Of a DNA stretch of 24,490 bases, positions 8,662 through 24,426 are shown piece after piece. The notes under the pieces were generated by a model that had not been told where the DNA came from, made no database searches, and saw nothing but the letters and a program-made list of their open reading frames with translations. Position 1 is the stretch's first letter. Each line of letters begins with the position of its first letter. This stretch comes from a virus (lineage: Duplodnaviria > Caudoviricetes), in the IMG/VR virus record IMGVR_UViG_3300017774_002359, positions 1 through 24,490 of that record; one strand, 5' to 3'. The translations under genes and the position numbers were made by a program.

Positions 8662-8836
8662 TCTTGTCACTTTCTAATACGACTGTAATCTTGTTTAATC
8701 GGATGTCGATGAACGTCTTGCCGTCCACCGTTCTTACACTTACATTATCCAAGATCACCTTCACTTTGTCAAGGTCTGTTTTGGAAAATCCAAGCTCGTT
8801 CAGTAAAATTTCGACGACCTTACCTTTTAATTCCAT
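8651..8836 (-). CDS. hypothetical protein
   Basis: 61-aa ORF; GGAG upstream; overlaps both neighbours. Confidence 0.6.
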   Translation of the reverse strand: MELKGKVVEILLNELGFSKTDLDKVKVILDNVSVRTVDGKTFIDIRLNKITVVLESDKNEY

Positions 8837-9218
8837 TGGATGCTCCAGCAGTATTAGGTATCATTCCGTTCATAGGTAATACCTTTTTTGTTTCTTCTAG
8901 GATTTCATTTCTTTCAATATTTATTTTCATGATATTATCCAATTTCATTGTGTGATCATTTAATATATCTGCGTGTATTGTAAAATTTTGCACAAGTATA
9001 TCGTTTTGCTTTTCTAGAATAGTTACAGTTCTGCCTGTTGCATCTTTTAATTGTGTGACTAATTCAAAGTGGGCGTCTACTATTGGTTCTATCTTTACAA
9101 AAATCTTTTTGCCTAATTTATAAAGTACAAATCCAGTTATCAACCATAATCCAACAGGAAAGCCGGTTTTATTAATGAATTCGCCCAAATTAGGAAGTAC
9201 TTCATGCCATGACATCAT
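8820..9218 (-). CDS. single-TM membrane protein with coiled-coil tail (holin-like / YvrJ-like N-terminus)
   Basis: FINKTGFPVGLWLITGFVLYK hydrophobic segment, then a heptad-like region; strong SD GGAGGTGAG at 9221-9229. Confidence 0.55.
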   Translation of the reverse strand: MMSWHEVLPNLGEFINKTGFPVGLWLITGFVLYKLGKKIFVKIEPIVDAHFELVTQLKDATGRTVTILEKQNDILVQNFTIHADILNDHTMKLDNIMKINIERNEILEETKKVLPMNGMIPNTAGASNGIKR

Positions 9219-9277: not shown

Positions 9278-9931
9278 TTAACGACCAGTGATTGGCTTGT
9301 AGTTATAAAAGTTTGAGCTTGTAGCAGGAAGGTAGTTTACAAAGTTTGTCAAGAATACCAAGCGACCCGGAATTGCTCTTGTTGGTTGTGAAGCAACAGA
9401 TCCGAAGTCAGAACCAGCAGTTGCTGTAAGAGTTGTATTCCATGTGGTTCTTTTCTTAATTTTGCTAGCATATCCAGCGCCAGTTGAACCATATCCAGTG
9501 CGGCTGAATAAGTTAGTTCTAATAGAGCTAGTATGATTGACATAATTATCTTGAACATAATACGCAATTGAAGGAGCAATACCAACATTGCCCATAAATT
9601 GCAGGAATGTATTAGCAACACCACCAGCAAGACTTGTTGTAAGTCTAGACATGATATAGGTGCGCAGTCTGCCGCTATTGCCATTGTAAGCAAATGTGCC
9701 GCTGCTTAAGATTTTAGCTGTGTTATACGTTCTAGCGCCAGATAGCAATTTTGGCAATGGATAAATTGTCATATCGCCAGCATTAATATCTTTTACCGAG
9801 ATAGCCTTGGTGATCTTTGCTGTTGCAGCAGACAGACCAACAATCGTGCCACCTTGACGTTGTGCTGTGAATGATCCACCAGCAGTGTTGAGTAAATATG
9901 GGTTAACACCACCCGTTTGAATTGGAACCAT
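9278..9931 (-). CDS. basic, G/T/S/A/N-rich protein, probably virion-associated
   Basis: ATG 9931 with SD AAGGAG; 217 aa with 0 Glu, 4 Asp and about 20 Lys+Arg; own leader and terminator. Confidence 0.7.
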   Translation of the reverse strand: MVPIQTGGVNPYLLNTAGGSFTAQRQGGTIVGLSAATAKITKAISVKDINAGDMTIYPLPKLLSGARTYNTAKILSSGTFAYNGNSGRLRTYIMSRLTTSLAGGVANTFLQFMGNVGIAPSIAYYVQDNYVNHTSSIRTNLFSRTGYGSTGAGYASKIKKRTTWNTTLTATAGSDFGSVASQPTRAIPGRLVFLTNFVNYLPATSSNFYNYKPITGR

Positions 9932-9937
9932 AGCAGT

Positions 9938-10024
9938 TCTCCTTAAAAAAGTTAGCAATCATTATTATATAATTTTCCTATTTGTCCCTGCATACGTTCC
10001 TTTTCCTACTTAATTATACACAAT
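9938..10024 (-). promoter_or_regulatory. putative promoter (TGTGTATAAT) and GGA-rich 5' leader
   Basis: Minus strand TTGTGTATAATTAAGTAGGAAAAGGAACGTATGCAGGGACAAATAGGAAAA...AAGGAG: a -10-like TATAAT in the end of the sigma gene, then five GGA motifs. Confidence 0.5.
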
Positions 10025-11600: not shown

Positions 11601-11633
11601 AAAAATGGGCCTAGCGTATTATACCAGACCCAT
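11601..11633 (-). terminator. rho-independent terminator
   Basis: ATGGGTCTGG-TATAATACG-CTAGGCCCAT stem (two G-U pairs) followed by TTTT, downstream of the stop at 11649. Confidence 0.75.
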
Positions 11634-11646
11634 CTAGAAAAGTCAA
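11618..11646 (-). promoter_or_regulatory. sigma70-type promoter
   Basis: TTGACT (11646-11641), 17-nt spacer, TATAAT (11623-11618), with extended -10 TGG. Confidence 0.82.
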
Positions 11647-11648
11647 TA

Positions 11649-12122
11649 TTAATTCAGTAAAATCCAAGCGATTGCACGCATTTTATCTGAAAGAGCTACT
11701 TGTTCTTCTTTAGTAATAATAGCTTCATTTTCTCCAAGAGTAGATAGAATGATTTTATACATTTTATCCCCAAGTGGTTTGTATTTATTACTAATTCTAT
11801 TGTTAAAAGTTAATTTAGCAGATTCGATATAGAAATTCTCAAAAGCAATGGAGCTTACATTTTCATAAGCTGGTAATCTTTTGCCCATTTCATTATTGAA
11901 AATTGCAATTAACTCTCTATCAAAAACTTCATCTGGTCCTGAAACAATAGTTTTTACATCTTTTAATTCTTCAATTAATTTATCCGTAGGCTTTTTCAAG
12001 TCTAATATTTTATTGTAATCTGTAGATGGAACAATTGGTTTATTAATATTAGATACTGAGATGCTATCCCAAAAGAATCCAATAATTACCAAACCTATTC
12101 CTAAAAATAGTCTTGGGTTCAT
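11649..12122 (-). CDS. N-terminally membrane-anchored protein
   Basis: MNPRLFLGIGLVIIGFFW hydrophobic anchor followed by a helical soluble domain. Confidence 0.7.
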   Translation of the reverse strand: MNPRLFLGIGLVIIGFFWDSISVSNINKPIVPSTDYNKILDLKKPTDKLIEELKDVKTIVSGPDEVFDRELIAIFNNEMGKRLPAYENVSSIAFENFYIESAKLTFNNRISNKYKPLGDKMYKIILSTLGENEAIITKEEQVALSDKMRAIAWILLN

Positions 12123-12123
12123 A

Positions 12124-12414
12124 TTATTTGTCCACTTTAATTAACATTGGGAAAATTTCATCTAGTTTAATAACGGCTTCGCTTAGACTGTTCTCTTCAC
12201 AAGCATCTTTTAGCACTTGCCATTTTTGAACGATTTCAACCAAATTGTCTTTTGTTTCTACTGGAGTCGGTGATGGCGCTGGCGTTGGAATAATATTTGG
12301 AATATCTATTTCACTAGCCTTCTTCTCTAATCTTTTAAGAAGAGAAGAGAAGTCAAATGATGATAGAATTACAGCAAGTCCAAGACCTAAAAAAATCATT
12401 TGGCCTGTACTCAT
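12124..12414 (-). CDS. N-terminally membrane-anchored protein with Pro-rich linker
   Basis: MIFLGLGLAVILSSF TM; PTPAPSPTP linker; GAGG upstream. Confidence 0.7.
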   Translation of the reverse strand: MSTGQMIFLGLGLAVILSSFDFSSLLKRLEKKASEIDIPNIIPTPAPSPTPVETKDNLVEIVQKWQVLKDACEENSLSEAVIKLDEIFPMLIKVDK

Positions 12415-12599
12415 TGGGACACCTCAGTCTTTCTAACTGAATCACCAACAATCCAGCTTGCACAAAGCAGGACAATATTTTGAATTTGGTCTGAGCTTAG
12501 AGTAGTAACTCCTAAACTTTCTGTTGCTACAGCTACAACTCCGGCTACTGCGACCCAGAATCTACGAGATTGTAACAATGCTTGAATTTTAGTTTGCAT
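12411..12599 (-). CDS. putative holin (two TM helices)
   Basis: 62 aa; LLQSRRFWVAVAGVVAV resembles the SRKFW motif of small phage holins; second TM IVLLCASWIVG; charged C-terminus. Confidence 0.65.
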   Translation of the reverse strand: MQTKIQALLQSRRFWVAVAGVVAVATESLGVTTLSSDQIQNIVLLCASWIVGDSVRKTEVSQ

Positions 12600-12933
12600 T
12601 TTTTGCCTCCTGAACGATTGATTGAAAATTTTCTGATGTTATTTTTTTTGACTCTGCCAAGATAAGATCCTGCACTTGTGGTCTTAAATGGGCATACTCT
12701 TTTGGAAGTTTATCTTTTACAGCTTTACGTAGTAGAATTTTATCTAATGGGCCGGGATTTTTAACCCGGTCTTCTAGACTTCTTCCAAATACGTTGCATT
12801 TCATTAGCAGTTGCAACACTCCAATGATGATTGATCCAATAATTATAATTAGACCGAAATCAAAGGAGTAATTGTTTTCACCATCCTCTATATTTGAGGC
12901 TATTTCTTTAGCTAAGTCTTCTGTTGCACTCAT
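12589..12933 (-). CDS. single-TM membrane protein
   Basis: FGLIIIIGSIIIGVLQLLM TM; acidic N-terminus, basic C-terminus. Confidence 0.7.
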   Translation of the reverse strand: MSATEDLAKEIASNIEDGENNYSFDFGLIIIIGSIIIGVLQLLMKCNVFGRSLEDRVKNPGPLDKILLRKAVKDKLPKEYAHLRPQVQDLILAESKKITSENFQSIVQEAKNAN

Positions 12934-13340
12934 GGGTTCACCTGAATATATTGCACTTGGGGTTGTACTTGGAGTTGTGCTTGGGGTTGAGTTGTCTGAA
13001 TTGGCGGCTCTTCTTTTGGCTTACATTTGCACACGCCACCGTCTTTTGAGCATTGACATTTGAGTTTATTGCCATCTGCCTGAACTATTTCGCCAGTCCC
13101 ATTGCACTTACATGCGATTTCAGGGGCTGGAGGAGTTGGCTTTGGCACATTTTCCTTTTTAATATTTTTCTTTTCTGTAGTATCTAAAATACTATTGACT
13201 CTCTCGACTTCTTTTTTGAGGTCTGATCCGATATCTCTAGAACCATATACTTGAGCTTGTTTGTCTGCAATATTGTATTCACTATAAGTATAGCCTACAA
13301 TTAAGCCCAAAGCGAGAACTACTACACTTTTTAAATTCAT
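12930..13340 (-). CDS. membrane-anchored or exported protein with Cys-rich (Zn- or disulfide-forming) domain
   Basis: ATG 13340 with AAGGAG; VVVLALGLIVGY TM; CKCNGTG...CQC...CKC; Q-rich tail. Confidence 0.7.
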   Translation of the reverse strand: MNLKSVVVLALGLIVGYTYSEYNIADKQAQVYGSRDIGSDLKKEVERVNSILDTTEKKNIKKENVPKPTPPAPEIACKCNGTGEIVQADGNKLKCQCSKDGGVCKCKPKEEPPIQTTQPQAQLQVQPQVQYIQVNP

Positions 13341-14272
13341 GCGAAAATCTCCTTCACTCTTGTCCAATCCATCTTTCGTTTAAAGCCATTGAAGTTAGTG
13401 TAGGCAAATGTTGCTCCAGCACCGATCATACCCTCAGCAACTTTTTGTCTAACCCAGAAACTTCCATCAGGTTGTTCATACCACTTAGGACCACTATTCC
13501 AAAGTCCCCAGCTATTCCCAACTAAGAATAGCATTTCATTAAATCTCTCATAAGTGTCATCACATGCAATTAATGCCATTGCGTGCGCCCAGCTACCTTG
13601 AGGTTCAGCTATTCCATTCTTATCTCTACGAGAAGAGAATCCATAGTTAGAGCAAACAGATAAAGCATATCCGTTGGCCAATAAGTCTCTAGCTTGTTCT
13701 ACGCTATTTACAGTTGTTACTGTAGTGATTTTATGCTCTGCACATTCTTTGACAACTGGCTCTGGTACGCCTCTGCCGCCCCAGTTCACTCCTATTTTAG
13801 CATTGTACGTGGATAAGTCAATGCCAAGATTTTCGTATTTTTGACGGAGTAAAAATCCACCCGTCACACTCACGAATCTTGCAGCTTGTGAACAGTGCAT
13901 TCCTTGGCCACTAAAGCCCCTAGAGCCGTAGATTGGTTCAGTAGCACCCCTAGCCACAAAAGATTCTTTCTCTTTGCCATAGAGAATCTCATAGGCTCTA
14001 GTGATGTCTACAGCGTTGCGTGTTGCATGACTAACGCAGTCACCAGTGGTTTGTGATTCATCTCCTCCAAAAGAAGGAAAGAAATATTGAATTGCTTTGT
14101 ATGGTAAAGATAAAACGCCTTTGCCTGTACCATATAATTGATCGCCAATACTACCAAACAATGGATTTGGCAATTCTTCCATAAGCCTAGCCATATCTAC
14201 TGGATCACATACTGCTCCTTGTAATCCATTGTTGTACTGTTCTAAAAGTTCTTCTGGACTATTAAATTCCAT
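13337..14272 (-). CDS. papain-like (clan CA, C1-type) cysteine peptidase
   Basis: QTTGDCVSHA (oxyanion Gln and catalytic Cys), WAHAMALIA (His), VGNSWG (Asn), DGSFWV; SD AAGGAG. Confidence 0.85.
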   Translation of the reverse strand: MEFNSPEELLEQYNNGLQGAVCDPVDMARLMEELPNPLFGSIGDQLYGTGKGVLSLPYKAIQYFFPSFGGDESQTTGDCVSHATRNAVDITRAYEILYGKEKESFVARGATEPIYGSRGFSGQGMHCSQAARFVSVTGGFLLRQKYENLGIDLSTYNAKIGVNWGGRGVPEPVVKECAEHKITTVTTVNSVEQARDLLANGYALSVCSNYGFSSRRDKNGIAEPQGSWAHAMALIACDDTYERFNEMLFLVGNSWGLWNSGPKWYEQPDGSFWVRQKVAEGMIGAGATFAYTNFNGFKRKMDWTRVKEIFA

Positions 14273-15332
14273 TCAAAATCTCCTTTGCTGTATTTTGCCA
14301 AGAGAAGTGCGTTGCGGTTTCAATACCAGCAATATTTAAACCTAATTCGCCTTCTTGTTTTAACGCATGAACATATCTCATTTTTTCCGCAAAACTGTTA
14401 ATTTCTTTTTCGCCAATTTTAGCCCAATTGCCCTGACCATGAAACCAAATTCCATCATGAGCTGGTTCAAGTTCTGTGATTTCTACTAGTCGTGCATTTT
14501 TTTCATTTGTAAATTCAGTATGTCCTGAATAATTTGTTGTGATAATATTTTTCCCGCATGATAAAAGCTCTAATAATTCTAAATTCCAGCCTTCGGCTTT
14601 TACAGGAAACACACCGCAATCAACTTGCCTCATTATATTATACACATGTTGCTGTGTTTTTTGACGGGGTAGTATTCGAATTTTATTGGTTAATCTGGAA
14701 TTTTTGTAATAATTGATCCATTCCTTATTAATTTGTTCAATAAATGGATTTTCACATAGTAACCAAAGTTCAACATTGTCATTTTGATTGAACGCCTTCT
14801 CAAAACATTTTAATAAAACATCGTGGCCTTTACGAATTTCCCACTTGCCACAGTTAAAGAAAATTGTTGCAGGACGGTGAGAGTTATTATTTTCATTAAA
14901 TATTGACCTGTCTACACCCAAAGGGATAACTGTTGGAGTTGTGCCAAGCTCCTCTTCGATGACACCCTTTGCCCATTTGGAACACACAAAAAGGTGATGG
15001 CATCCTTTCATGCTTCTTTTTTCTTCTTCTGTGAATTTGTTAAGTTCAAAAATAGGAAAGCCAATCTTCTTTCCCTTTCCTACAGACTCATGCAATCCGT
15101 TCTGATGCCAAATTTTAAGAGATGTGTCAGACCATTTTGTGTTTTCATCTTTGTTTCTCCAGTCGAGATGAGCTAATTCTTCATATAGTTCTGGCTCAGG
15201 CTGACCGATTGGAAATATTGTCAACTCTTGATTTGTCCAAGAGGGATTTTCTAGTTGTTTAGCTAATTGTTTAGCTATGTTATATCCGGCAACACCATAT
15301 CCCAAGCTGTTAATTGGAGCTTGTAAAAGCAT
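14262..15332 (-). CDS. glycosyltransferase family 4 (GT-B)
   Basis: SLGYG, VCSKW, IPLGVD, CGKWEIRKGHD, FPVKAEGWNLELLE (EX7E), TTNYSGHTEF, FSW; ATG 15332 with GGGAG. Confidence 0.9.
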   Translation of the reverse strand: MLLQAPINSLGYGVAGYNIAKQLAKQLENPSWTNQELTIFPIGQPEPELYEELAHLDWRNKDENTKWSDTSLKIWHQNGLHESVGKGKKIGFPIFELNKFTEEEKRSMKGCHHLFVCSKWAKGVIEEELGTTPTVIPLGVDRSIFNENNNSHRPATIFFNCGKWEIRKGHDVLLKCFEKAFNQNDNVELWLLCENPFIEQINKEWINYYKNSRLTNKIRILPRQKTQQHVYNIMRQVDCGVFPVKAEGWNLELLELLSCGKNIITTNYSGHTEFTNEKNARLVEITELEPAHDGIWFHGQGNWAKIGEKEINSFAEKMRYVHALKQEGELGLNIAGIETATHFSWQNTAKEILNGI

Positions 15333-15694
15333 TAATAACTCTCCCATAGTTTGATTATATTATCTGGAAAATACAGGCTTTTAATAGCATTATCTAAATC
15401 TTCAATAGTCTGTCCGGCTAATCCTGTTGCCAATGGAGTTAATAAGAAGACAAGATCGTCATTTCTTTGTGCGTATTTCATAAGAACTTCCAGTTGGATT
15501 CTTATAAAGTCCCATCCTATAAAACCTGTTCTTAAGTCTTTAGTTATTATAGCATAAGTTTGCCCCTGACGCCCACTATTCTTTCCATATTCTGCACCCC
15601 AAGCCATTGCGGTTTTTGCTGCTCCTGCACCATGCCTACCTTCAGTATTACTACCAAATACAAATACCTCATTCTGTAATAAGAACTCTACCAT
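15332..15694 (-). CDS. macrodomain-like phage protein (A1S_2505-type)
   Basis: EVFVFGSNTEGRHGAGAAKTA...GQTYAIITKD...FLLTPLATGLAG; ATG 15694 with AGGAG. Confidence 0.72.
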   Translation of the reverse strand: MVEFLLQNEVFVFGSNTEGRHGAGAAKTAMAWGAEYGKNSGRQGQTYAIITKDLRTGFIGWDFIRIQLEVLMKYAQRNDDLVFLLTPLATGLAGQTIEDLDNAIKSLYFPDNIIKLWESY

Positions 15695-15707
15695 TATTTC
15701 TCCTATG

Positions 15708-15733
15708 AAAAACCCCACTATTTCTAGTGGGGT
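15708..15733 (-). terminator. rho-independent terminator
   Basis: Perfect ACCCCACTA-GAAA-TAGTGGGGT stem-loop (GNRA loop) followed by TTTT. Confidence 0.85.
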
Positions 15734-15749
15734 AATATTGTTTTGTCAA
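15721..15749 (-). promoter_or_regulatory. sigma70-type promoter (perfect -35, imperfect -10)
   Basis: TTGACA (15749-15744), 17-nt spacer, TAGAAA (15726-15721). Confidence 0.5.
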
Positions 15750-15750
15750 G

Positions 15751-15921
15751 TTAAGATTGGGCTTTTTTTAACGCTTCAGGATCTGGACGATCAGGATCGC
15801 CCGGTTTAGCTGGTTTATAATTTTTACCTTCTCGCTCTTTTTTCTTGCGAATATTTTCCCACAAGCCCGGTTTTTCAGCTTCTGTATACTCACTCATAGC
15901 ATCTGTATAATTTTTTTTCAT
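15751..15921 (-). CDS. 56-aa basic protein (below the ORF-track cutoff)
   Basis: MKKNYTDAMSEYTEAEKPGLWENIRKKKEREGKNYKPAKPGDPDRPDPEALKKAQS; SD AGGAG; followed by a terminator. Confidence 0.8.
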   Translation of the reverse strand: MKKNYTDAMSEYTEAEKPGLWENIRKKKEREGKNYKPAKPGDPDRPDPEALKKAQS

Positions 15922-15996
15922 AAGTACTCTCCTATTTTTCAGCTATTATGTCGAACTGATCTACACTAATACTATACCCATATTTTTGTAATTCTG

Positions 15997-16704
15997 CTAC
16001 CTAAATAAATTTGTATATTTTTGCAAAGACTCAATCCAGTATGTATTTAAGTGGTTATTTTTATGCCATTCCGCGCTAGGAACATGAGTGCCTAAGTCAG
16101 CGCCTATATTTTGAACTCGCGACACTGCTGGGAATATTTCCCCTCGTCCATTTCTGGCTACATGATTAACTGTGGCATCCCAACTCCCTCTAGCTCCAGC
16201 AAAATCCCACACCTTTTCCATATCTTTAAAACGATCTTTCCACGTTGCCCAACCCCACGGAGTAAACCAAGATCGTCTTTCTGTCAGTTCGATATTTTGA
16301 CTTGGAGGATAGTAATGTTCTGTTTTATTGTCTGAGTTTACATATGCAGATACTGTAAATATACTCTGGTCATCTTTGTATGTCTCTCTGGCCCACTCAA
16401 AATATTTTAAACAGTCTTTCCCCGGAATTGTATCATCTTCGAAGTGAATATGATAATCGTTTTTTGCAAATCCTATTGCAAGGCACTGAAATATATTAGT
16501 ATTGCATCCATATCTACGGGGATTTACGGTGACGTGAGTTTGACTGGGCCTAAAATTTCTAGCTAGGTCTTCTATCGGTTTATGCCCCGGTTCACAGCAT
16601 ATGTTTATTTCGTAATCTTGGATTCCATAGCATTCATCTAGATATTGGAATAATCTTTCAGTATATTGCAATCTATTATAAAGTGATATAGTTAACGTCT
16701 TCAA
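15997..16704 (-). CDS. GT-A fold glycosyltransferase (GT2/GT13-like)
   Basis: ISLYNR, GCNTNI, IHFEDD, TPWGWATWKDR, SWD, SRVQNIG. Confidence 0.8.
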   Translation of the reverse strand: MKTLTISLYNRLQYTERLFQYLDECYGIQDYEINICCEPGHKPIEDLARNFRPSQTHVTVNPRRYGCNTNIFQCLAIGFAKNDYHIHFEDDTIPGKDCLKYFEWARETYKDDQSIFTVSAYVNSDNKTEHYYPPSQNIELTERRSWFTPWGWATWKDRFKDMEKVWDFAGARGSWDATVNHVARNGRGEIFPAVSRVQNIGADLGTHVPSAEWHKNNHLNTYWIESLQKYTNLFR

Positions 16705-17027
16705 GTTTTTGTTTCTACAACTTTCTTATCTGGGAAAAATTTATTCTGCAACGCCACTTTACAATTATATCTTGTCATGTTGCAACTGTCAACCTCTTTT
16801 GCAGAAATTTCCCAATATCTTGCCAACTCTACGGCGTTGAATGTTTGTGCGTTCGCGTCATAAAGATCGTGGAATTCTCTGGACTCGGTAATTTTTTTAT
16901 GTAGATCTCTTCCAATTTGAGATTCAATATGCTCATATGTTGTGTCATGATGTTGTTTGTTTCCTTTTACCGCTAATATAGCTAAGTAATCGTAGGCATA
17001 TCCTTCGTCAACAATTATTGATATCAT
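16701..17027 (-). CDS. small helical hypothetical protein (DUF6165-like)
   Basis: ISIIVDEGYAYDYLAILAVK...N..RY..K..LQ pattern; family assignment tentative. Confidence 0.55.
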   Translation of the reverse strand: MISIIVDEGYAYDYLAILAVKGNKQHHDTTYEHIESQIGRDLHKKITESREFHDLYDANAQTFNAVELARYWEISAKEVDSCNMTRYNCKVALQNKFFPDKKVVETKT

Positions 17028-17034
17028 ATTTTCC

Positions 17035-17751
17035 TCATATATCGTAATATTTTATTGAAGGGTGATTATAGCACCATTCTTCTGGGTTGAATGTTTTAGG
17101 GTTAAATTTTGGCTGGAATACGTTTGCTATTGCACCAACAGAGACGGCTAGGTGAAAATCTCCAGTGTTAGAGCCAAAGTACAAGCCCACTCTTCTCATT
17201 AAACATATATATTTTTTTATACATAAATCGCTTAGTACATTCTCATGTTCAATGTTATATTCATATTTTGATGATAGACACAATATTGGCGTATAGCCTG
17301 AAGTTTTAAGCTGATTGATTAAGTCTTCAGTCAGTTCTTTTTTCATACCTCTTATGTCTTTAGCATTCGGAGAACACATGGGTGCTATAATAACTGGATT
17401 TGGTTTATCTTTTAAATAATGACTCACCCACATTTCTGATTCCATATCGGTATAAAGAACAAGCGGTCTGTTATCCAACAGCGTCGCTTTTTCTCCAAAG
17501 AAATTTCTAAGTTGCCGTGTTGCATAATGTCCCCTTCCTAAACTTGGTAGATAGTTTCCTTTTCTTACCAATTCAGTATAAGGCATATCATCTACAAATT
17601 CAATATCTGCAATTTTATCAAAAAATATAGAAAATCTAGATACCGATTTTTGAATCTCAATCGTGAATCTATTTGGGAAAAATTTACAAACTGATGTTAG
17701 CAGCAACAAGTCTCCCATTCCATAGTTACCGCATCCAAATTTAGTAATCAT
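17035..17751 (-). CDS. GT9 (heptosyltransferase)-like glycosyltransferase
   Basis: N-terminal GMGDLLLLT; C-terminal YFGSNTGDFHLAVSVG (GxDxGxxHLAxA-like). Confidence 0.75.
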   Translation of the reverse strand: MITKFGCGNYGMGDLLLLTSVCKFFPNRFTIEIQKSVSRFSIFFDKIADIEFVDDMPYTELVRKGNYLPSLGRGHYATRQLRNFFGEKATLLDNRPLVLYTDMESEMWVSHYLKDKPNPVIIAPMCSPNAKDIRGMKKELTEDLINQLKTSGYTPILCLSSKYEYNIEHENVLSDLCIKKYICLMRRVGLYFGSNTGDFHLAVSVGAIANVFQPKFNPKTFNPEEWCYNHPSIKYYDI

Positions 17752-18542
17752 AAAATATGAGCGTACCTTTCAATATTATTTTTCACAGCTTCAGGGAAAG
17801 TCTCGTCTATCTCTGCTTTTATTAATTTATACTCGCCTCTGTCAAATAAATCAACACACTTGCCGATATTTTTTCTGATGGTCGCTTTGATCTCTTCGGT
17901 ATCGCTTTCTGTGTGGGCGAAAGATTCAATCTTTTCAATAATTTGCTGTTCATCGCCCAAGTAGGAGAAATGCCATCCAGTATTTTTAATACTTGGAAAG
18001 CTGTCTTTAAAGTGCCTGTACCAATGCAGGTCAGAATTCTCTTTTAATATTTTTCCGTTGATAACAACAGTTCCTCTCCAGTTATGAAACTCTTCTGGCT
18101 CGATAACTTTATAAGTTAGCTTATCATAGAATAACTGAGAGCATAGCGTTATGGGGTTATTTATATTGTTAAAATTTTTAAAGTATTCAGCTTTAAATGA
18201 TTGCATAAATGATCTACGTGGAATTTCATCAATATCAGATATCATGATCATATCATAGTTATTAACGTCTACTAATCCATTTATCATATATCTACGCTGA
18301 TTATTTTCTAATTGCCAGCTTGTTGCGTCTGGTGGGCAATCACTAAAAACTAAGTACTTAATTTTATCAGCATACTTTTTATATCTATCTGCATTCTCGA
18401 TATATCTTAGCGGTTTATTTTTGCCGCTATGAGTTTTAGTTGATTCGCATATGATAAACTTGTCTACCGCTGGATACAATTCTTCTAATCTTATTTCTAA
18501 TGTATCTAGCTCATTAAAAAATTGAAAGCAATCATAAACCAT
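17748..18542 (-). CDS. GT17-like (MGAT3-type) glycosyltransferase, copy 2
   Basis: VYDCFQFFNELDTLEIRLEEL, VDKFIICES..HSG..KP, ENNQR, ISDIDEIP, GWHFSYLG, KIESFAH. Confidence 0.85.
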   Translation of the reverse strand: MVYDCFQFFNELDTLEIRLEELYPAVDKFIICESTKTHSGKNKPLRYIENADRYKKYADKIKYLVFSDCPPDATSWQLENNQRRYMINGLVDVNNYDMIMISDIDEIPRRSFMQSFKAEYFKNFNNINNPITLCSQLFYDKLTYKVIEPEEFHNWRGTVVINGKILKENSDLHWYRHFKDSFPSIKNTGWHFSYLGDEQQIIEKIESFAHTESDTEEIKATIRKNIGKCVDLFDRGEYKLIKAEIDETFPEAVKNNIERYAHIL

Positions 18543-19176
18543 AATGTTGTCTCACTTCTTCTCTCGGTTGTTTCCCATGAAAACCAAAGCTGTTATATAT
18601 AGTATTTTCGTAATCCGGCAATGGCACTTCGTATGAAAATTGTGCAGCGATATCAACTGGTGCAAATTTAATTCCATTGGATTCTAAATGTGACTTATAT
18701 ATTTCGCATATTGTAAAGTCTTCATTCTCTCCATCAACTGGTAGATAGGCGCATTGCTTAAATAGATTTGTAGATCTTAATGAAAAACCTCCATTACCAA
18801 CTCTACTTTTCATTAAATGCCCATTGTGAACTAATCCCACGCCCCAAGGCGCTCCAATATAATCGTAGTCAAAAAAGATGTCTGTCCATCTTTCTGGATT
18901 TAATGGAAAACCATCATGCTGACACAATAATCCGTAACAATCTTCATCCCAAACTTCGTTCAATCGCACTACAAAATTATTGTAATCCCTATAATTTAAC
19001 TTAGGGATTTTAAAATATTTAACTAGGGGGTGTTTAAATTCAACAGGAGAATATATAATTGGATTTATAGTTTTGACTCCTGCTGCATTTAATACCTTTG
19101 TAGCATGTTCTAATATTGGAATTAAATCTACGGATTTGCCAACGCCATCCACAATAAAAGGTCTTACTATGTTCAT
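18532..19176 (-). CDS. DUF5672-like putative glycosyltransferase, copy 2
   Basis: QHDGF, FFDYDYIGAPW, VGNGGFSLRS, ED, FAP..A.QFS.E, FGFHG. Confidence 0.8.
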   Translation of the reverse strand: MNIVRPFIVDGVGKSVDLIPILEHATKVLNAAGVKTINPIIYSPVEFKHPLVKYFKIPKLNYRDYNNFVVRLNEVWDEDCYGLLCQHDGFPLNPERWTDIFFDYDYIGAPWGVGLVHNGHLMKSRVGNGGFSLRSTNLFKQCAYLPVDGENEDFTICEIYKSHLESNGIKFAPVDIAAQFSYEVPLPDYENTIYNSFGFHGKQPREEVRQHYGL

Positions 19177-19961
19177 ATTAAATCCTTAAATTTTACAAGA
19201 TTATTTTTTATTGCTTCTGGATATGAATTATCAATCTGCACTTTCTTTAGTAGGAATTCAGGTCTGCCAAGTGGATCTTTGGTATTATTTACATTATCTG
19301 CAATATTATCAAGAACTTCTTTTCTATCCCATTCGTTATGAACGTATGACGCTACTTTATCTATGATATCCTGAGCAGTTCCCATATATGAAAAGTGCCA
19401 ACTTCCAGTATTTGTGAATCTAGTCCAATTATCTTTTAGATTCCTATGATATTGCATATCTGGGATTGTTTTGAAAAATTTACCCGGAATAACTACAGTG
19501 CCTCCCCAATTTTGATGCATAGATGGTTCTATAACTTGATATACAATTTTCCCATAATATAATTTATGACATATTGTTACAGTTTGATCGTAGTCAAAAT
19601 TATTTATTAATCGCTTCAAATATGATCTCTTGGGAATTTCGTCCACATCAGATACCATGATAATGTCATCATCTTTTAATGTGTTCATATCTACGCCGTT
19701 TATCATGTAACGTCTCTGATCATTCTCAAGCGTCCAATACTCTATTTTCTCTGGGAATTTATCATAGATTACATAATTAATTTTATCTAGGTATTTTGCA
19801 TACCTATCTTTATTATTTTTAAACCTTAACTCTTTTGGTTTTCCGTTGTGAGTTAATGTTGATTCACATAATACAAATTTATCAACTATTGGATACAGTT
19901 CTTCTAATCTTATCTCTAGAGCGTCAAATTCATTGAAGAATTGAAAACAATCATATACCAT
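19173..19961 (-). CDS. GT17-like (MGAT3-type) glycosyltransferase, copy 1
   Basis: VYDCFQFFNEFDALEIRLEEL, ENDQR, VSDVDEIP, SWHFSYMG. Confidence 0.85.
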   Translation of the reverse strand: MVYDCFQFFNEFDALEIRLEELYPIVDKFVLCESTLTHNGKPKELRFKNNKDRYAKYLDKINYVIYDKFPEKIEYWTLENDQRRYMINGVDMNTLKDDDIIMVSDVDEIPKRSYLKRLINNFDYDQTVTICHKLYYGKIVYQVIEPSMHQNWGGTVVIPGKFFKTIPDMQYHRNLKDNWTRFTNTGSWHFSYMGTAQDIIDKVASYVHNEWDRKEVLDNIADNVNNTKDPLGRPEFLLKKVQIDNSYPEAIKNNLVKFKDLI

Positions 19962-20601
19962 ATAATTCCTTAACTTTCTTTACGTTTCCAGACCCATGAA
20001 ATCCAAATGTTTTTTCTATTCCGAATTTTCTTTCAGGCACAATATCTGTATCATAAGAAAAATGCATAGCTACTTCCACGGGTGCGAATTTAATTCCGTA
20101 CACATCTCTAAGTATATCACCATATCTATCGCATATTCTTGTATCTTCGGGCGAACCATCATGTACGACCACGTTTGATATTACATTTAGGCAATAAGGA
20201 GATCTTAGGCAAAAACCCCCATTGCCGACTCTTTTATGATATGGTCTATCGGTTCCCCAAGGACTGCCAATATAATCATAGTCAAAGAATTCATCTTTCC
20301 AACATTCAGGATTTAATGGGAAACCATCGTGTTGACATATAAGTGCATATGAATCATCTTGCCATATTTTACCCAAGCCAACTATAAAATCATTGTATTG
20401 CGGATAATTTAAAAAATCAATTTTTTTATGTTGAATCGTCTTATGATTAAACTCGACAGGAGAAAATAAAAATGGGTCATTACATTTGACCAATGCTTTA
20501 TTTAATACTGAAATTGCCTGTTCCAAAACTTGTATTGATTTATCTATGTCGCCGATGCCATTAACAATAATTGGAGTTATAGATTTATTATTTCCAGACA
20601 T
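19951..20601 (-). CDS. DUF5672-like putative glycosyltransferase, copy 1
   Basis: QHDGF, FFDYDYIGSPW, VGNGGFCLRS, PED, FAP, FGFHG; ATG 20601 with GAAGGA (track start 20619). Confidence 0.8.
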   Translation of the reverse strand: MSGNNKSITPIIVNGIGDIDKSIQVLEQAISVLNKALVKCNDPFLFSPVEFNHKTIQHKKIDFLNYPQYNDFIVGLGKIWQDDSYALICQHDGFPLNPECWKDEFFDYDYIGSPWGTDRPYHKRVGNGGFCLRSPYCLNVISNVVVHDGSPEDTRICDRYGDILRDVYGIKFAPVEVAMHFSYDTDIVPERKFGIEKTFGFHGSGNVKKVKELYGI

Positions 20602-21574
20602 CCGGTAATCCTTCTTCAATCTCTATATTTTTAAACTTCTTAGTTTTTACATCTAAAAGATATTTGTTATCATCTATCCACTGAAGAAATGAATCTATCC
20701 CATCTTTTAGAAGTGTGTTACACTCACCAAATTCATTAATGGCTTTGTGATGATTGCTTTGAGCGTTAACTACTTCTTGTCTAGCTGGTTGATATTTAAT
20801 TTTAACCTTTGGAAAGATTTGTTTCACCATTTTCGCTAGGTCGTTTACAGTATTTGGATTACTTGATCCTATATTGTAAACGCCAGAGATTTTTTCATCC
20901 AAGCATTGTTCGAACTGAGGAATTAAATCATCAATATAAGTCCAGCACCTTATTTGATTGCCATCTCCAAAAATATTTATCGGCTTATTTTTTATTGCAG
21001 CCCTAAGAAATATAGACACTACATTTCTGTATTTATCAGCTAAATTCTGTTTTGGCCCGTACACGTTATGCGGCCTGAGTATCGTATAGTTTAGCCCAAA
21101 CATTCTATGGGCCTGTTCTATATCTAGCTCACATGCGTATTTTGCGATCCCATATGGGTCTTCTGGCTGAAGTTCGTCCGTTTCAAGATATGGTGGAATT
21201 ATAGAACCATAAACCGCAATACTAGACGTAAAAATAAGTTTATTAACCTTATTCTTTACACATTCGTTCACCACATTAGCCGTACCAACTATATTATTTG
21301 TGTAGTTATAGTTCCTAATAAAAGGACTTAGCCCTTCTGCTGCGTATGCTGCTAAATGATAGACATAATCAAACTTTTCCGTTTGGAATATCTTTGCCAA
21401 ATTTTTCGCGTTGCAAATGGATTCTTTGTAAAATGTCGCCCCGTCTGGGATATTTTCAAATATTCCACCGCTAAGATCATCAACTATTGTAACTTTATAG
21501 TTTTTGTTTTTAAGGTGGTGAGCTAGGTTTGATCCTATAAACCCAGCTCCACCTGTAATTAAGACATGTTTCAT
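20588..21574 (-). CDS. NAD-dependent NDP-sugar epimerase/dehydratase (extended SDR)
   Basis: TGGAGFIGS, DDLSGG, HLAA, FTSSIAVYG, YGIAK, RPHNVYGP, GDGNQIR. Confidence 0.93.
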   Translation of the reverse strand: MKHVLITGGAGFIGSNLAHHLKNKNYKVTIVDDLSGGIFENIPDGATFYKESICNAKNLAKIFQTEKFDYVYHLAAYAAEGLSPFIRNYNYTNNIVGTANVVNECVKNKVNKLIFTSSIAVYGSIIPPYLETDELQPEDPYGIAKYACELDIEQAHRMFGLNYTILRPHNVYGPKQNLADKYRNVVSIFLRAAIKNKPINIFGDGNQIRCWTYIDDLIPQFEQCLDEKISGVYNIGSSNPNTVNDLAKMVKQIFPKVKIKYQPARQEVVNAQSNHHKAINEFGECNTLLKDGIDSFLQWIDDNKYLLDVKTKKFKNIEIEEGLPDVWK

Positions 21575-22104
21575 TTTTCAATATACATCAGTATGTTATC
21601 CATGTAGCATTGAGCTACGTGTAATAGATTTAAAGTTGTAAACTCTGGATTATTTCTTTGTAGAGTTTCTAAATTACATAGCTGTATATCTTCCACTACA
21701 AAGATTCCACCGTCATTTAAGAACTGCTTGTAATTCTTGCACGCATAATCTTGTGTCTCAAGACTATGTGGACCATCGTCTATAATGATATCAAACTTAA
21801 CTCCTTTATTTTTAAAGAAAGATAGTGTTGATTCATCGTATGCATTCATCATATATTTCTTAACTCTATCTGAGTGTATATATTTAGAATGATCGACTAT
21901 ATCTAGTCCATATATTTCAGCATTTGGGAAAAAATCTTCCCATAGTTTTAAAGAATCTCCAGCAAATATACCAATTTCTAGTATTTTTATATTATCATTT
22001 TTTCTTGATGTTAATTTTTCACAATAGAAATTTGATATATAATGATGAAAGTGTTCTTTATCACTTTTTCTTCCGGTTTGATTGTAAACTTCAAGTAGTG
22101 TCAT
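21571..22104 (-). CDS. class I SAM-dependent methyltransferase (probable sugar O-methyltransferase)
   Basis: SDK...HHY, ILEIGIFAGDS, YGLDI, FDIIIDDGPH, GGIFVVED; ATG 22104 in a TAATG overlap. Confidence 0.85.
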   Translation of the reverse strand: MTLLEVYNQTGRKSDKEHFHHYISNFYCEKLTSRKNDNIKILEIGIFAGDSLKLWEDFFPNAEIYGLDIVDHSKYIHSDRVKKYMMNAYDESTLSFFKNKGVKFDIIIDDGPHSLETQDYACKNYKQFLNDGGIFVVEDIQLCNLETLQRNNPEFTTLNLLHVAQCYMDNILMYIEK

Positions 22105-22673
22105 TAAGTCATATCCGATACATTGTTGCTGGACCACATTTTACACGACCAATAATTAGCTTTCCACTTTGGACCGGGGCTATCACAGTTATGACGAGCG
22201 CGATAAGACTTGCGTCTTTCTGGGTCATCTCGTTTGATTTCCATGTTGGGGTCGCCAAAATTTACTTTGACAACATTACCCTTGTCATTCTTAACATACA
22301 CCGAAAATTTCTTCGGGCCTTTTGGTGTGCGAAATGGCTTGTTAAGAGTGACTTTTGGATCTTTCTTACCTTTGCCATCATCTGCTGCGTTTACACTTGG
22401 GCCATTAAGAGTCTTATCTCTATCATCTTCGTAGAATACTCCACCCGCGAGAGTAAACTCATAAGTGAATTCATCCCACTCATCATCCCATTTAGCATCT
22501 GCAAATTGGTATGCGAGGTCTGCACCCTCCATAGCGGTCGCTCTTGATTCTTGCAAGCACACAGCGACTCTTTGCTGAGAATCCTTATAGTCCTTTTTCA
22601 TCTCTGTATCGCTCATACACCTAGATACAAATTCCTTGGAGTCTTCGTCTTTTCTTTTGCTTGGAATTGGCAT
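22104..22673 (-). CDS. two-domain phage protein: MPIP..FVSRCM..QRVAVC domain plus basic FG..RR.SYRARH.C..YWSC domain
   Basis: Two recognisable small domains joined by an acidic linker; function unknown. Confidence 0.7.
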   Translation of the reverse strand: MPIPSKRKDEDSKEFVSRCMSDTEMKKDYKDSQQRVAVCLQESRATAMEGADLAYQFADAKWDDEWDEFTYEFTLAGGVFYEDDRDKTLNGPSVNAADDGKGKKDPKVTLNKPFRTPKGPKKFSVYVKNDKGNVVKVNFGDPNMEIKRDDPERRKSYRARHNCDSPGPKWKANYWSCKMWSSNNVSDMT

Positions 22674-23152
22674 TATTTATCCTTTTTTGTTGATGATCTT
22701 GGGTGATCTTTTGGTAATAAATCATTATCTTGTACATAATTTGGATTTGAAGGTCTTCCATTATACATTAAATATAAGAAAGCTTTTACCCTTGCTATTC
22801 CCCAGCCCCTTCTATCCATAGATGGATGATGGCTAGTAGAGAAAGCCCCTTCGCCTCTTCTCTGAACTGATTTCAATTGCCCCATTGTAGCCTTAGAACC
22901 TTTGTTGTTTTTTTCTACTTTGGCGTTATGCTCTTTCATCATTGAGGATAGAGTATTAGTTGTTTCTTTTCCCTGTTTAATATCATTATTTGGCTTGCTT
23001 GCAGAGTCAGGTGGATTTTTTTTGGAACCTTCTTTTCTTTCGCTTGGCTTTGCAGGAGTCTTTCTTGGATCGTCTTTTGATGGTTTGCCATATTGCAGAG
23101 CAATGGCCTCCTCTATCATTTCAACAATCTCTTCTCTTCTATCTTTTTGCAT
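22673..23152 (-). CDS. basic protein with DUF5824-like domain
   Basis: LKSVQRRGEGAFSTSHHP...WGIARVKAFL...DNDLLP. Confidence 0.65.
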   Translation of the reverse strand: MQKDRREEIVEMIEEAIALQYGKPSKDDPRKTPAKPSERKEGSKKNPPDSASKPNNDIKQGKETTNTLSSMMKEHNAKVEKNNKGSKATMGQLKSVQRRGEGAFSTSHHPSMDRRGWGIARVKAFLYLMYNGRPSNPNYVQDNDLLPKDHPRSSTKKDK

Positions 23153-23812
23153 TTAAGAGTTCTCCCTGTTATTTATATGATAATCGTAATTCTCGTTATC
23201 TTCGAATACCCACTTCCAGTTCCCCTCAGATGTCCATATGTTTGTATGTATCTTTCTTGGGATTTGTGCATCTGGCTTTGTGCAAAATGATGGGTCGTGT
23301 ATTTTGATTCTGTTGTTTGGCTGTATTGCAAAGTTTCCGTTGTCGAGTTTTATGAAGTGTCCGCATTTATGCTGGCCCGGAGCTTCGCTAAAACCCATTG
23401 GAGTTATGTTACTTTCTTCGTTCGCCCAATCTATTGTAAACATGTACTGCCCAAAATACTCCACATTTTTTCTACTAACGTATTTAATTCTTTTATTTTT
23501 TAACACTTCAAATACTGTAACAGAAGGGTAATAGCTAAAGGAATCCCACAGCTCTATTTCTTCTAGGAATTCCTGTTCATTTGATCCAATGATTGGAGTT
23601 CCCTCTTTATGGCAAAATGCAGATATTGGTAGTCGCCAAAAAATTCCACCATCTTCTAATAATGAATGGAAAAGAGGCACTCTCCCTGTGATGCTAGAAA
23701 ATCCAAAAAGCAGACACGGATAATATAATCCATGTCCACCTTCAAGATTCTGTAAGAATTCACCCCTAACATAGCATTCTATCGGAGGTATATTAGAATT
23801 TAAATATGACAT
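23153..23812 (-). CDS. conserved phage hypothetical protein
   Basis: YLNSNIP, RLPISAF, ELWDSFSY, YMFTIDW, HKCGH, LDNGNFAIQPNNR; TAATG coupling. Confidence 0.75.
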   Translation of the reverse strand: MSYLNSNIPPIECYVRGEFLQNLEGGHGLYYPCLLFGFSSITGRVPLFHSLLEDGGIFWRLPISAFCHKEGTPIIGSNEQEFLEEIELWDSFSYYPSVTVFEVLKNKRIKYVSRKNVEYFGQYMFTIDWANEESNITPMGFSEAPGQHKCGHFIKLDNGNFAIQPNNRIKIHDPSFCTKPDAQIPRKIHTNIWTSEGNWKWVFEDNENYDYHINNRENS

Positions 23813-24426
23813 TAGTCTTCTTCTTCTTCATAATACATTACATAATCATGGACAGACTTTAAATAATCTTCTATAATTGTAATTTTTGATTGAACCCAGC
23901 CTTCAGATAAGCATGTTTGATTGGTTTCGTTTAGCCCCATCATTAATGCGTTTGCGTGCTTTACAATTGATTTAATGGAAGCTTTTGACATTTCTATATT
24001 TTCTTGGACAATTTCTTCTGGGTCATCTGAAGCTTTTGATTTATTGGCTCGCCACGCAGCTTCTACCACTTCAATCTTTTTCTTTTTTACATTTGACTCT
24101 AAATAACTATCTTCTTCTTGTTCTGTAGCCCCAGATTTTTTTGAGCCTAAATTGATATCATCCGTAGGCAGTGCTGGCATTTTTTCCTTGGGATACTTTT
24201 GACTACTGTCTCGTTTCTTTGGAGTGTAATCTAATTCCCAGTTCACCATGCTGCTTTCGTCATTTGAACCCGGAGCGGCTTTAGTTTTTTTATTTTTACT
24301 ATTGGTTTTTTCATCTGGGCTTTCTGAGGTATCAACTTGCTCATCAAATTTGACATTAGCAAGAGCTTCTTCTAAGCCTTGCAATATTCTATCAGTTAGA
24401 GGCGGTCGTTTCATCTGTAGGTACAT
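23812..24426 (-). CDS. charged, largely disordered protein with C-terminal WVQSKIT..DYL..V.DY helix
   Basis: 204-aa ORF; alternative start ATG 24414. Confidence 0.7.
   Translation of the reverse strand: MYLQMKRPPLTDRILQGLEEALANVKFDEQVDTSESPDEKTNSKNKKTKAAPGSNDESSMVNWELDYTPKKRDSSQKYPKEKMPALPTDDINLGSKKSGATEQEEDSYLESNVKKKKIEVVEAAWRANKSKASDDPEEIVQENIEMSKASIKSIVKHANALMMGLNETNQTCLSEGWVQSKITIIEDYLKSVHDYVMYYEEEED

Follow-up and report, generated by a model that had tools for sequence, protein, structure and literature searches.

The lambdoid holin-endolysin-spanin cassette consists of S, R and Rz/Rz1 and occupies the slot just upstream of the terminase genes, and interchangeable holins occur as one or another unrelated small membrane gene per phage. 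The pseudomurein endoisopeptidases PeiW and PeiP have a wall-opening role in phages, while Cwp84, which processes an S-layer protein, provides an earlier example of a C1A enzyme with an envelope protein as its target. In the available sections of PMC10318531, the cysteine peptidases by which phages open the host wall are of the CHAP and NlpC/P60 types. The subject of this report is a block of six genes in IMG/VR record IMGVR_UViG_3300017774_002359; the window is the whole stretch of 24,490 bp, which is the entire record of the genome and carries all of its long open reading frames (ORFs) on the minus strand (Table 1). As read from the sequence, the six genes are a conserved phage module around a papain-fold protease (PROT) and likely the lysis cassette of a phage whose host is likely a planctomycete. 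As predicted from its genes the module would work like a holin-endolysin cassette, but its enzyme did not pass as a known muralytic enzyme.

A conserved block around a papain-fold protease

The six ORFs of the initial annotation were found again, tightly coupled on the minus strand, with junction overlaps of 31, 4, 11 and 4 nt followed by a 1-nt gap. The start of the Cys-rich protein (CYS) is more likely the ATG at 13340 behind GAAGGAG, giving a 4-nt overlap with the protease. That the genes form a unit ending at a terminator held for the genes, the overlaps and the hairpin; it did not hold upstream, where the coupling runs on beyond the block into a glycosyltransferase (GT) gene and a 128-aa gene. 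These two genes are probably co-transcribed with the block. They lie outside the conserved core, the conserved unit being six genes or fewer.

Synteny across related phages, proposed earlier as a check, was borne out. Of 167 viral loci fetched, 166 had a protease ORF, and in 103 the sequence around it extended 3 kb or more upstream and 5 kb or more downstream. These 103 fell into 56 clusters at 90% protease identity; because there were only 5 clusters at 70% (single linkage), the 56 are not 56 independent lineages. The core genes shared a locus in 53/56 clusters in three gene orders, with TM157, TM96 and CYS in the protease locus in all 53 (46–48 within 3 kb) and TM114 in 29/56. Three clusters lacked the core partners, and there long genes inserted after the protease ran past the flank. 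The order in the window is GT-PROT-CYS-(TM114)-H62-TM96-TM157. In lineage 2 it is TM/PAS-H73-PROT-(inserts)-CYS-TM96-TM157, TM denoting transmembrane, and in lineage 3 (phages of 190–240 kb) v9-v5-TM96-TM157-PROT-v7-CYS-TM114-v8. In lineage 2 the GT gene stands at a distance of about 4 kb, and the flanking genes listed for lineage 3 do not include it. One of the small membrane genes H62, H73 and v9 was present in 51/56 clusters and two together in only 1, and H62 had no detectable homology to H73 or v9 (probability < 1%); by analogy, this distribution is that of interchangeable holins. The phage group is widespread, with an estimated 1300 or so IMG/VR stretches.

The protease had been described as a C1-like peptidase with intact Gln/Cys/His/Asn residues and no signal peptide, and its fold, residues and N-terminus agree. 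Homologue searches gave 1264 homologues and, separately, 1408 representatives; fusions, insertions and signals were counted in the 150 listed of these 1408. Among 64 diverse homologues Q74, C79, H230 and W255 were invariant and N253 was at least 90% conserved. The AlphaFold2 (AF2) model (predicted local distance difference test score, pLDDT, 86) had 226 PDB matches at E ≤ 0.001, and all listed fold matches were C1A, the top Foldseek match being xylellain (3OIS, E 6e-9, TM 0.59/0.68) with cathepsins next. Sequence searches with the protease gave no usable match in Pfam, PHROGs, NCBIfam, PDB or 50,697 GenBank phages; Peptidase_C1 (PF00112) did not match it at E 0.01, and precomputed PF00112 was present on 1/120 listed homologues. 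Because Pfam, PHROGs and the PDB sequence search were silent, the C1 assignment rests on motifs and fold, and as modelled the window protease is C1A-like by fold and not a PF00112 member. No Pfam match to CHAP or NlpC/P60 and no NlpC/P60 fold match was obtained for it.

The N-terminus is not hydrophobic (maximum KD19 0.78) and carries an extension of about 60 residues. The Gln stands 5 residues before the Cys, the papain spacing being one residue more. Insertions of more than 100 aa were present in 48/150 listed representatives, mostly at the catalytic Cys or His, and 3/5 of those tested contained Pfam intein domains. Inteins are expected in essential enzymes, and by that rule their presence at the catalytic sites was taken as fitting an essential enzyme. 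The family is an intein hotspot, with sites at the catalytic Cys, at the catalytic His and near the NSWG motif, and with two in some proteins (L081:8801-10696; P0121-P0268). In many jumbo phages a second, longer protein (515–750 aa) that matches the protease profile is encoded a few genes downstream of the module (L155, L172, L179, L186, L189, L195, L202, L203, L212 and L227).

Membrane partners, fusions and export

Of the five TM proteins said to follow the protease in a row, four were upheld by their hydrophobic segment scores (TM114 2.64, TM157 2.05, TM96 1.84, H62 1.73); CYS was marginal (1.48), its segment being perhaps not a TM helix but a signal peptide. CYS consists of an N-terminal signal or anchor, a Pro-rich linker and a CxCxGxG..DG..C knuckle, with C86, C88, G90, G92, D98, G99 and C104 conserved and the knuckle motif present in 104/123 homologues. 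As first reported, none of the window proteins has an obvious lipobox; a lipobox-like motif occurs in 15/123 homologues of CYS. Pfam thioredoxin domains were detected in 5/6 long CYS homologues tested (in relatives L044, L058, L066, L081 and L082), and in L065 the domain is a separate ORF. TM96 has the conserved motif W..C..LDE.FP. By a crude charge-bias rule the C-termini of TM157 and CYS face out and those of TM96 and TM114 face in.

The four-helix domain of the TM157 model is predicted to be periplasmic. Helical bundles (Csm2, ATP-synthase delta) gave its best fold match, at Z 7.0, which is under the guide value of the tool for helical models. No viral fold match was found at E ≤ 0.001, which shows neither a relation nor a new fold, and the ESM Atlas held no usable match for TM157.

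The TM157 domain stands at the N-terminus of the protease in 15/150 listed representatives (12 at E ≤ 1.4e-5) and the Cys knuckle at its C-terminus in 4/150, all three parts being joined in P0163 and P0169. TM157-protease fusion genes are carried by viral contigs L150 and L151, and TM157-CYS fusions by L068, L085, L123, L125 and L127. A hydrophobic N-terminus was found in 0/120 of the closest protease homologues. Tat-like N-termini were found in 4/150 listed representatives, Sec- or Tat-like N-termini in L134 and L136 (by eye), and hydrophobic leaders in several prophage copies. Given the TM157 fusions, the thioredoxin domains on CYS homologues and the Tat/Sec-like signals of other homologues, the protease likely works outside the inner membrane. 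In the window, where it has no signal, it would presumably reach the periplasm through the holin, and elsewhere by fusion or by its own signal.

The suggestion that the anchored proteins substitute for spanins fared less well. CYS weakly matches the Rz-like phrog_1152 (E 0.0066), but the natural fusions point elsewhere and suggest that TM157 and CYS are the anchor and redox arm of the protease itself rather than spanins.

H62 had been called a holin-like protein with two TM segments and the SRRFW motif. Its two hydrophobic segments were seen, and its family matches holin profiles weakly but repeatedly (16/22 members for phrog_297, 11/22 for phrog_9987, best E 3.3e-5), which points weakly to a holin. 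No Pfam match to H62 was obtained. The nearest named cluster has PF04531 in 19% of its members (score 0.88), and this is a lead only.

Search for a conventional endolysin

Because the window is the whole record, the search for a separate endolysin was made in relatives, with G001 (locus L010) standing in for the window. The protease of G001 is 92% identical and its gene order is as in the window. The genome is 155,259 bp, 100% complete by CheckV, with terminase, portal and tape-measure genes, and from this relative the window phage is taken to be a large tailed phage.

No known endolysin family was found in the complete relatives. In G001 neither Pfam (the 150 longest of 234 ORFs) nor PHROGs (140 ORFs) returned a muralytic or spanin family, the only lysis-class match being rIIB. 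Twelve families were also searched in six frames, each with a control that gave matches. Amidase_2 and Phage_lysozyme were matched in 0/24 and 0/11 records, and the remaining counts were likewise nil: SLT in 0/24 records; Amidase_3, M15_3, M15_4, M23, CHAP and PG_binding_1 in 0/5; NlpC/P60 and Hydrolase_2 in 0/14; and GH25 in 0/17. Five families were also searched in 9–11 near-complete jumbo relatives. Completeness was at least 90% for 2/24 records and for 11/11 jumbo records, and G002–G004 were covered by the family searches only.

Probable host and genomic position

Host prediction pointed to Planctomycetota as the likely host. DUF1559 and DUF1501 are typical of planctomycetes. DUF1559 was matched in G001 (E 1.6e-43), two genes upstream of the GT gene, and in 0/14 control genomes; DUF1501 was matched in L040. 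GTDB homologues on long chromosomal contigs belonged to Pirellulales and Thermoguttaceae, and matches in other taxa were mostly on short contigs or apparent binned phage. Among sampled genomes (seeds excluded; small counts) the protease profile matched 6/400 Planctomycetota, 1/400 Bacteroidota and 0/400 Pseudomonadota.

In 4/4 prophages examined the protease lies upstream of terL, by 4.8 (G025), 1.9 (G219), 1.8 (G386) and 4.1 (G185) kb. Its neighbours there are TM157-like genes and lipoprotein or anchored CxxC genes, with small two-segment membrane genes in G025 and G386. PHROGs returned no endolysin on 142 ORFs (the four prophages, part of G412 and module genes elsewhere).

Proposed mechanism and alternatives

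Lysis by the module, with protein wall or peptidoglycan as the substrate, is considered probable. That a holin-released protease docks on membrane anchors and cuts a Cys-rich protein wall is given slightly less than an even chance. The protease, which has no export signal in the window, would accumulate in the cytoplasm, perhaps kept latent by its N-terminal extension. Judging from topology and fusions, TM157 and CYS would be placed with their domains in the periplasm. H62 would then open the inner membrane, as its family's weak holin profile matches suggest, and release the protease, which would dock on TM157 beside the Cys knuckle in the arrangement of the TM157-protease-Cys-knuckle fusions. 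There the knuckle (with a thioredoxin domain in some relatives) may keep the catalytic Cys reduced, open disulfide cross-links of the wall, or both. Cleavage of wall proteins or envelope tethers would finally burst the cell. Timing or scaffolding of the event may fall to TM96 and TM114, whose tails are predicted to be cytoplasmic; this is the weakest step.

A disulfide-linked protein target is favoured because exported thioredoxins beside the protease fit such a target. In the accessible text of PMC12673574 the planctomycete wall is protein-dominated and includes Cys-rich YTV proteins, and the part of PMC2754498 at hand speaks of a disulfide-bonded sacculus made of protein. The initial annotation had proposed holin-released papain-type proteolysis of a protein-rich envelope, and the conserved cluster, the absence of a conventional endolysin, the holin-like family and the protein-rich wall of the likely host speak for that proposal. 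An S-layer as the target found no support here, and a Cys-rich protein sacculus fits better. The case made in the initial annotation against a C1-type enzyme as a peptidoglycan hydrolase is weak, because peptidoglycan annotations are found on other C1A-fold proteins of phages and planctomycetes have peptidoglycan. The most general statement, that planctomycete phages from prophages of about 30 kb to jumbo phages of 240 kb replaced the muralytic endolysin with a holin-released, membrane-docked protease-redox machine that dismantles a disulfide-cross-linked wall, is put forward more tentatively still.

A number of observations weigh against lysis of a protein wall by this module. Pfam found no thioredoxin CxxC domain in the six genes of the window, and the CxxC tails of four protease fusion proteins are a motif only, with no Pfam match. 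The window H62 by itself matches holin phrog_297 at E 0.025 only, and H73, v9 and the prophage two-segment proteins matched no holin profile at E 0.01. As to the host, DUF1559 was present in only 1/17 records searched and is missing from the window, metagenome-assembled genomes of non-planctomycetes contain several of the phage contigs, and a Bacteroidota chromosome (G613, L264:9300-10235) has a lone, close protease homologue (E 1e-101) among housekeeping genes, with no partner match. The cassette also occurs in planctomycete chromosomes without surrounding phage genes (L244:9552-11881 in G299; L131 and L132, about 8.2–11.9 kb), where it is a prophage remnant or a domesticated lysis or envelope module. 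The neighbours of the block in G001 are DNA-metabolism genes; its strand is opposite to that of the virion genes, and the terminase gene is about 62 kb away. Position thus supports lysis in the prophages only, there being no packaging genes near the block in the window lineage. Silent controls made the searches for GH19 and GH108 uninformative. No family match was obtained for many proteins of G001, large tail proteins among them, and an unrecognised hydrolase could be hidden among such proteins, since most structural proteins of these phages match none. Finally, peptidoglycan is present in planctomycetes according to the available part of PMC12673574, and among the Foldseek matches of the protease are C1A-fold proteins of phages whose names are "Peptidoglycan binding-like" (A0A6J5MXS7, E 3e-7) and "N acetylmuramidase" (A0A8S5PQA2, E 2e-5).

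These last two points also favour the main rival, in which the cassette is the same and the protease is a new peptidoglycan peptidase, an endolysin of C1A fold whose targets are stem peptides or cross-links in the thin peptidoglycan of planctomycetes; TM157 and the Cys protein or lipoprotein would be anchor and spanin-like pair. The evidence from position, holin and missing endolysin fits it equally, and the Rz-like match of CYS, a similar weak match of a 93-aa gene in the G025 cassette (E 0.006) and the lipobox-like motifs of some CYS homologues agree with it. It is nevertheless judged unlikely: a peptidoglycan-binding domain was found in none of 5 records searched and in none of six scanned fusion proteins, the sections seen of PMC10318531 place papain-like wall hydrolases in the NlpC/P60-CHAP cluster and not in C1A, a disulfide-linked protein substrate more readily accounts for the recurrent exported thioredoxin partners, and the family is rare outside Planctomycetota though peptidoglycan is near universal. 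Envelope remodelling during infection, in which the targets of the protease would be receptors on the surface or defence proteins in the periplasm (superinfection exclusion, host takeover), leaves the phages without any lysis enzyme and explains neither the holin-like gene nor the slot before terminase in the prophages. The coupling of the module to glycosyltransferase genes in the lytic phages, the pilin-like DUF1559 gene in close relatives, the sigma70-type promoter region and the chromosomal cassettes without flanking phage genes are in its favour, and overall it is clearly improbable.

Two further readings are each regarded as very improbable. In one, the protease would cut its own membrane partners as a lysis timer or activation switch, leaving it to a membrane-acting product or an unrecognised enzyme to open the wall. 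Several conserved single-pass partners do have predicted cytoplasmic tails, a TM-PAS gene stands just before the holin-like gene and protease in lineage 2, and G001 has rIIAB-type genes; against this, the location indicated by fusions and signal peptides is outside the inner membrane, where the protease would be apart from the predicted cytoplasmic tails, and the partners except TM157 vary strongly in prophages. In the other, the enzyme serves virion maturation or is a virion-borne entry protease. Separate head-maturation proteases are encoded by the module-carrying prophages G025 and G386, so that it is not the sole protease of a head module there, and in G001 the block is outside the head block, on the other strand and far from the structural genes. 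Nor does capsid processing agree with membrane anchors, lipoboxes or Tat/Sec signals. Consistent with a virion role are the nearness to head and packaging genes in prophages, the insertion, directly behind the lineage 2 protease, of genes that look tail-fibre-like in sequence, and the match of one G412 partner to a "virion structural protein" profile (E 2e-5).

If planctomycete phages do lyse their hosts by such proteolysis of the wall, it would be a categorically new phage lysis route, without a muralytic enzyme, in a widespread phage group; it would give functions to four unassigned membrane-protein families and indirectly indicate that the load of the planctomycete envelope is borne by protein and not by peptidoglycan. 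Whether peptidoglycan or a Cys-rich protein layer supports the planctomycete cell has been debated since the 1980s (PMC12673574, in the portion available). A phage must cut the load-bearing layer, and the substrate of the protease therefore makes this question directly testable. The protease would also offer a possible marker gene for phages of planctomycetes and perhaps a means to open planctomycete cells.

Surroundings of the block

The hairpin 3' of TM157 (z -3.9) was not listed by the terminator scan. Its stem kept 11 pairs in 11 close relatives, 8/11 with compensatory changes, and the hairpin is real. The promoter lying over it was graded strong sigma70-type, and its TTGAC and TATAAT are invariant while the stem covaries. 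Equivalents in which hairpin and promoter share the same DNA were present in L003–L007, L010–L012, L018 and L049; at this site L013 has the hairpin only and L015 the promoter only.

Table 1. Position of the module genes and other features in the 24,490-bp window
Feature	Position	Strand	Description
PROT	13337..14272	-	Papain-fold C1A-like cysteine peptidase, 311 aa (motifs and fold model)
PROT Q74	14053-14051	-	
PROT C79	14038-14036	-	
PROT H230	13585-13583	-	
PROT N253	13516-13514	-	
CYS	12930..13340	-	136 aa; 145 aa if TTG at 13367 is used
TM114	12589..12933	-	Single-pass membrane protein, accessory (29/56 clusters)
H62	12411..12599	-	Small two-segment hydrophobic holin-like protein, SRRFW motif (holin profile matches of family)
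TM96	12124..12414	-	Single-pass membrane protein, core (53/56 clusters)
TM157	11649..12122	-	N-terminal anchor and four-helix domain, core (model pLDDT 91; 53/56 clusters)
Terminator-like hairpin and sigma70-type promoter	11601..11646	-	Stem 11633-11623 / 11615-11605, then T run
Promoter for next gene	TTGACT 11646-11641; TATAAT 11623-11618	-	Overlaps hairpin, TATAAT at loop
Glycosyltransferase gene	14262-15347	-	Upstream, coupled
128-aa phrog_2072 gene	15332-15718	-	Upstream, coupled
TM132	8820-9218	-	132-aa TM and coiled-coil gene (TGFPVGLW); positional analogues f25, TM-PAS f21, v10
226-aa gene	9278-9958	-	Gly/Thr/Ala-rich
Strong terminator	9265-9238		After the 226-aa gene
Glycosylation cluster	15997-22137	-	Variable
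Charged ORFs	15751-15921; 22104-24426	-	Family 12

Pfam searches of the window returned recA-like, phoH, class II ribonucleotide reductase, dCMP deaminase and sigma factor genes as well as the glycosylation cluster. In four freshwater metatranscriptomes contigs covered parts of the module at 90–100% identity, which indicates presence but not strand, ends, level or timing, DNA possibly being in the samples.

The positional analogues of TM132 come after the same upstream gene in other lineages; in lineage 2 and the cassette of G299 they stand directly before the holin-like gene. TM132 may be a detached holin/antiholin or timing gene. Because the profiles of TM132, f25 and f21 gave no cross-matches, their equivalence is positional only. 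The 226-aa gene was present in 70 of the first 88 clustered sequences, has no family match and possibly encodes a virion protein. The glycosylation cluster contains tandem pairs of GT17 (two) and DUF5672 (two) genes together with an epimerase, a methyltransferase and a GNT-I-like gene. The several charged ORFs have short repeated motifs in common and form one family, with weak DUF5754/DUF5824 matches and a domain content that varies among relatives. Close relatives have a prepilin-type DUF1559 gene upstream of the module (L010:7410-8534) that is absent from 15718-15997 of the window, and other relatives have one to three DUF1501-like genes near the module.

Comparison with known systems

No description of the module was found in the literature searched (titles and abstract openings, mostly outside subscription journals, supplements aside). 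The consulted portion of PMC9703825 mentions papain-like amidases in tail modules only, and predicted planctomycete phages are reported without such module detail in the part seen of bioRxiv 2021.09.01.458585. Judged from its genes, the module is likely an undescribed way for a phage to burst its host.

Like xylellain, C1A cathepsins and Cwp84 (4CI7), the protease has the papain fold, the Gln/Cys/His/Asn residues, the NSWG motif and an N-terminal extension; unlike them, it is phage-encoded, tied to a membrane-protein cassette, about 13% identical and shorter in its Gln-Cys spacing. With CHAP, NlpC/P60 and PeiW/PeiP it shares being a phage cysteine peptidase, but it is of a different superfamily branch, and where those enzymes carry wall-binding domains it has instead the membrane anchor TM157 and redox partners. 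Like the lambdoid S, R and Rz/Rz1 genes, the module combines a small holin-like gene, a signal-less hydrolase and anchored and lipoprotein partners, its prophage versions sit just upstream of the terminase genes, and its exported protease variants parallel signal-peptide endolysins. Unlike the lambdoid cassette, it has a C1A-fold peptidase of no known muralytic family as its hydrolase and lacks a convincing spanin pair, and its partners are of unassigned families that fuse to the enzyme, one of them with a Cys knuckle and sometimes a thioredoxin domain.

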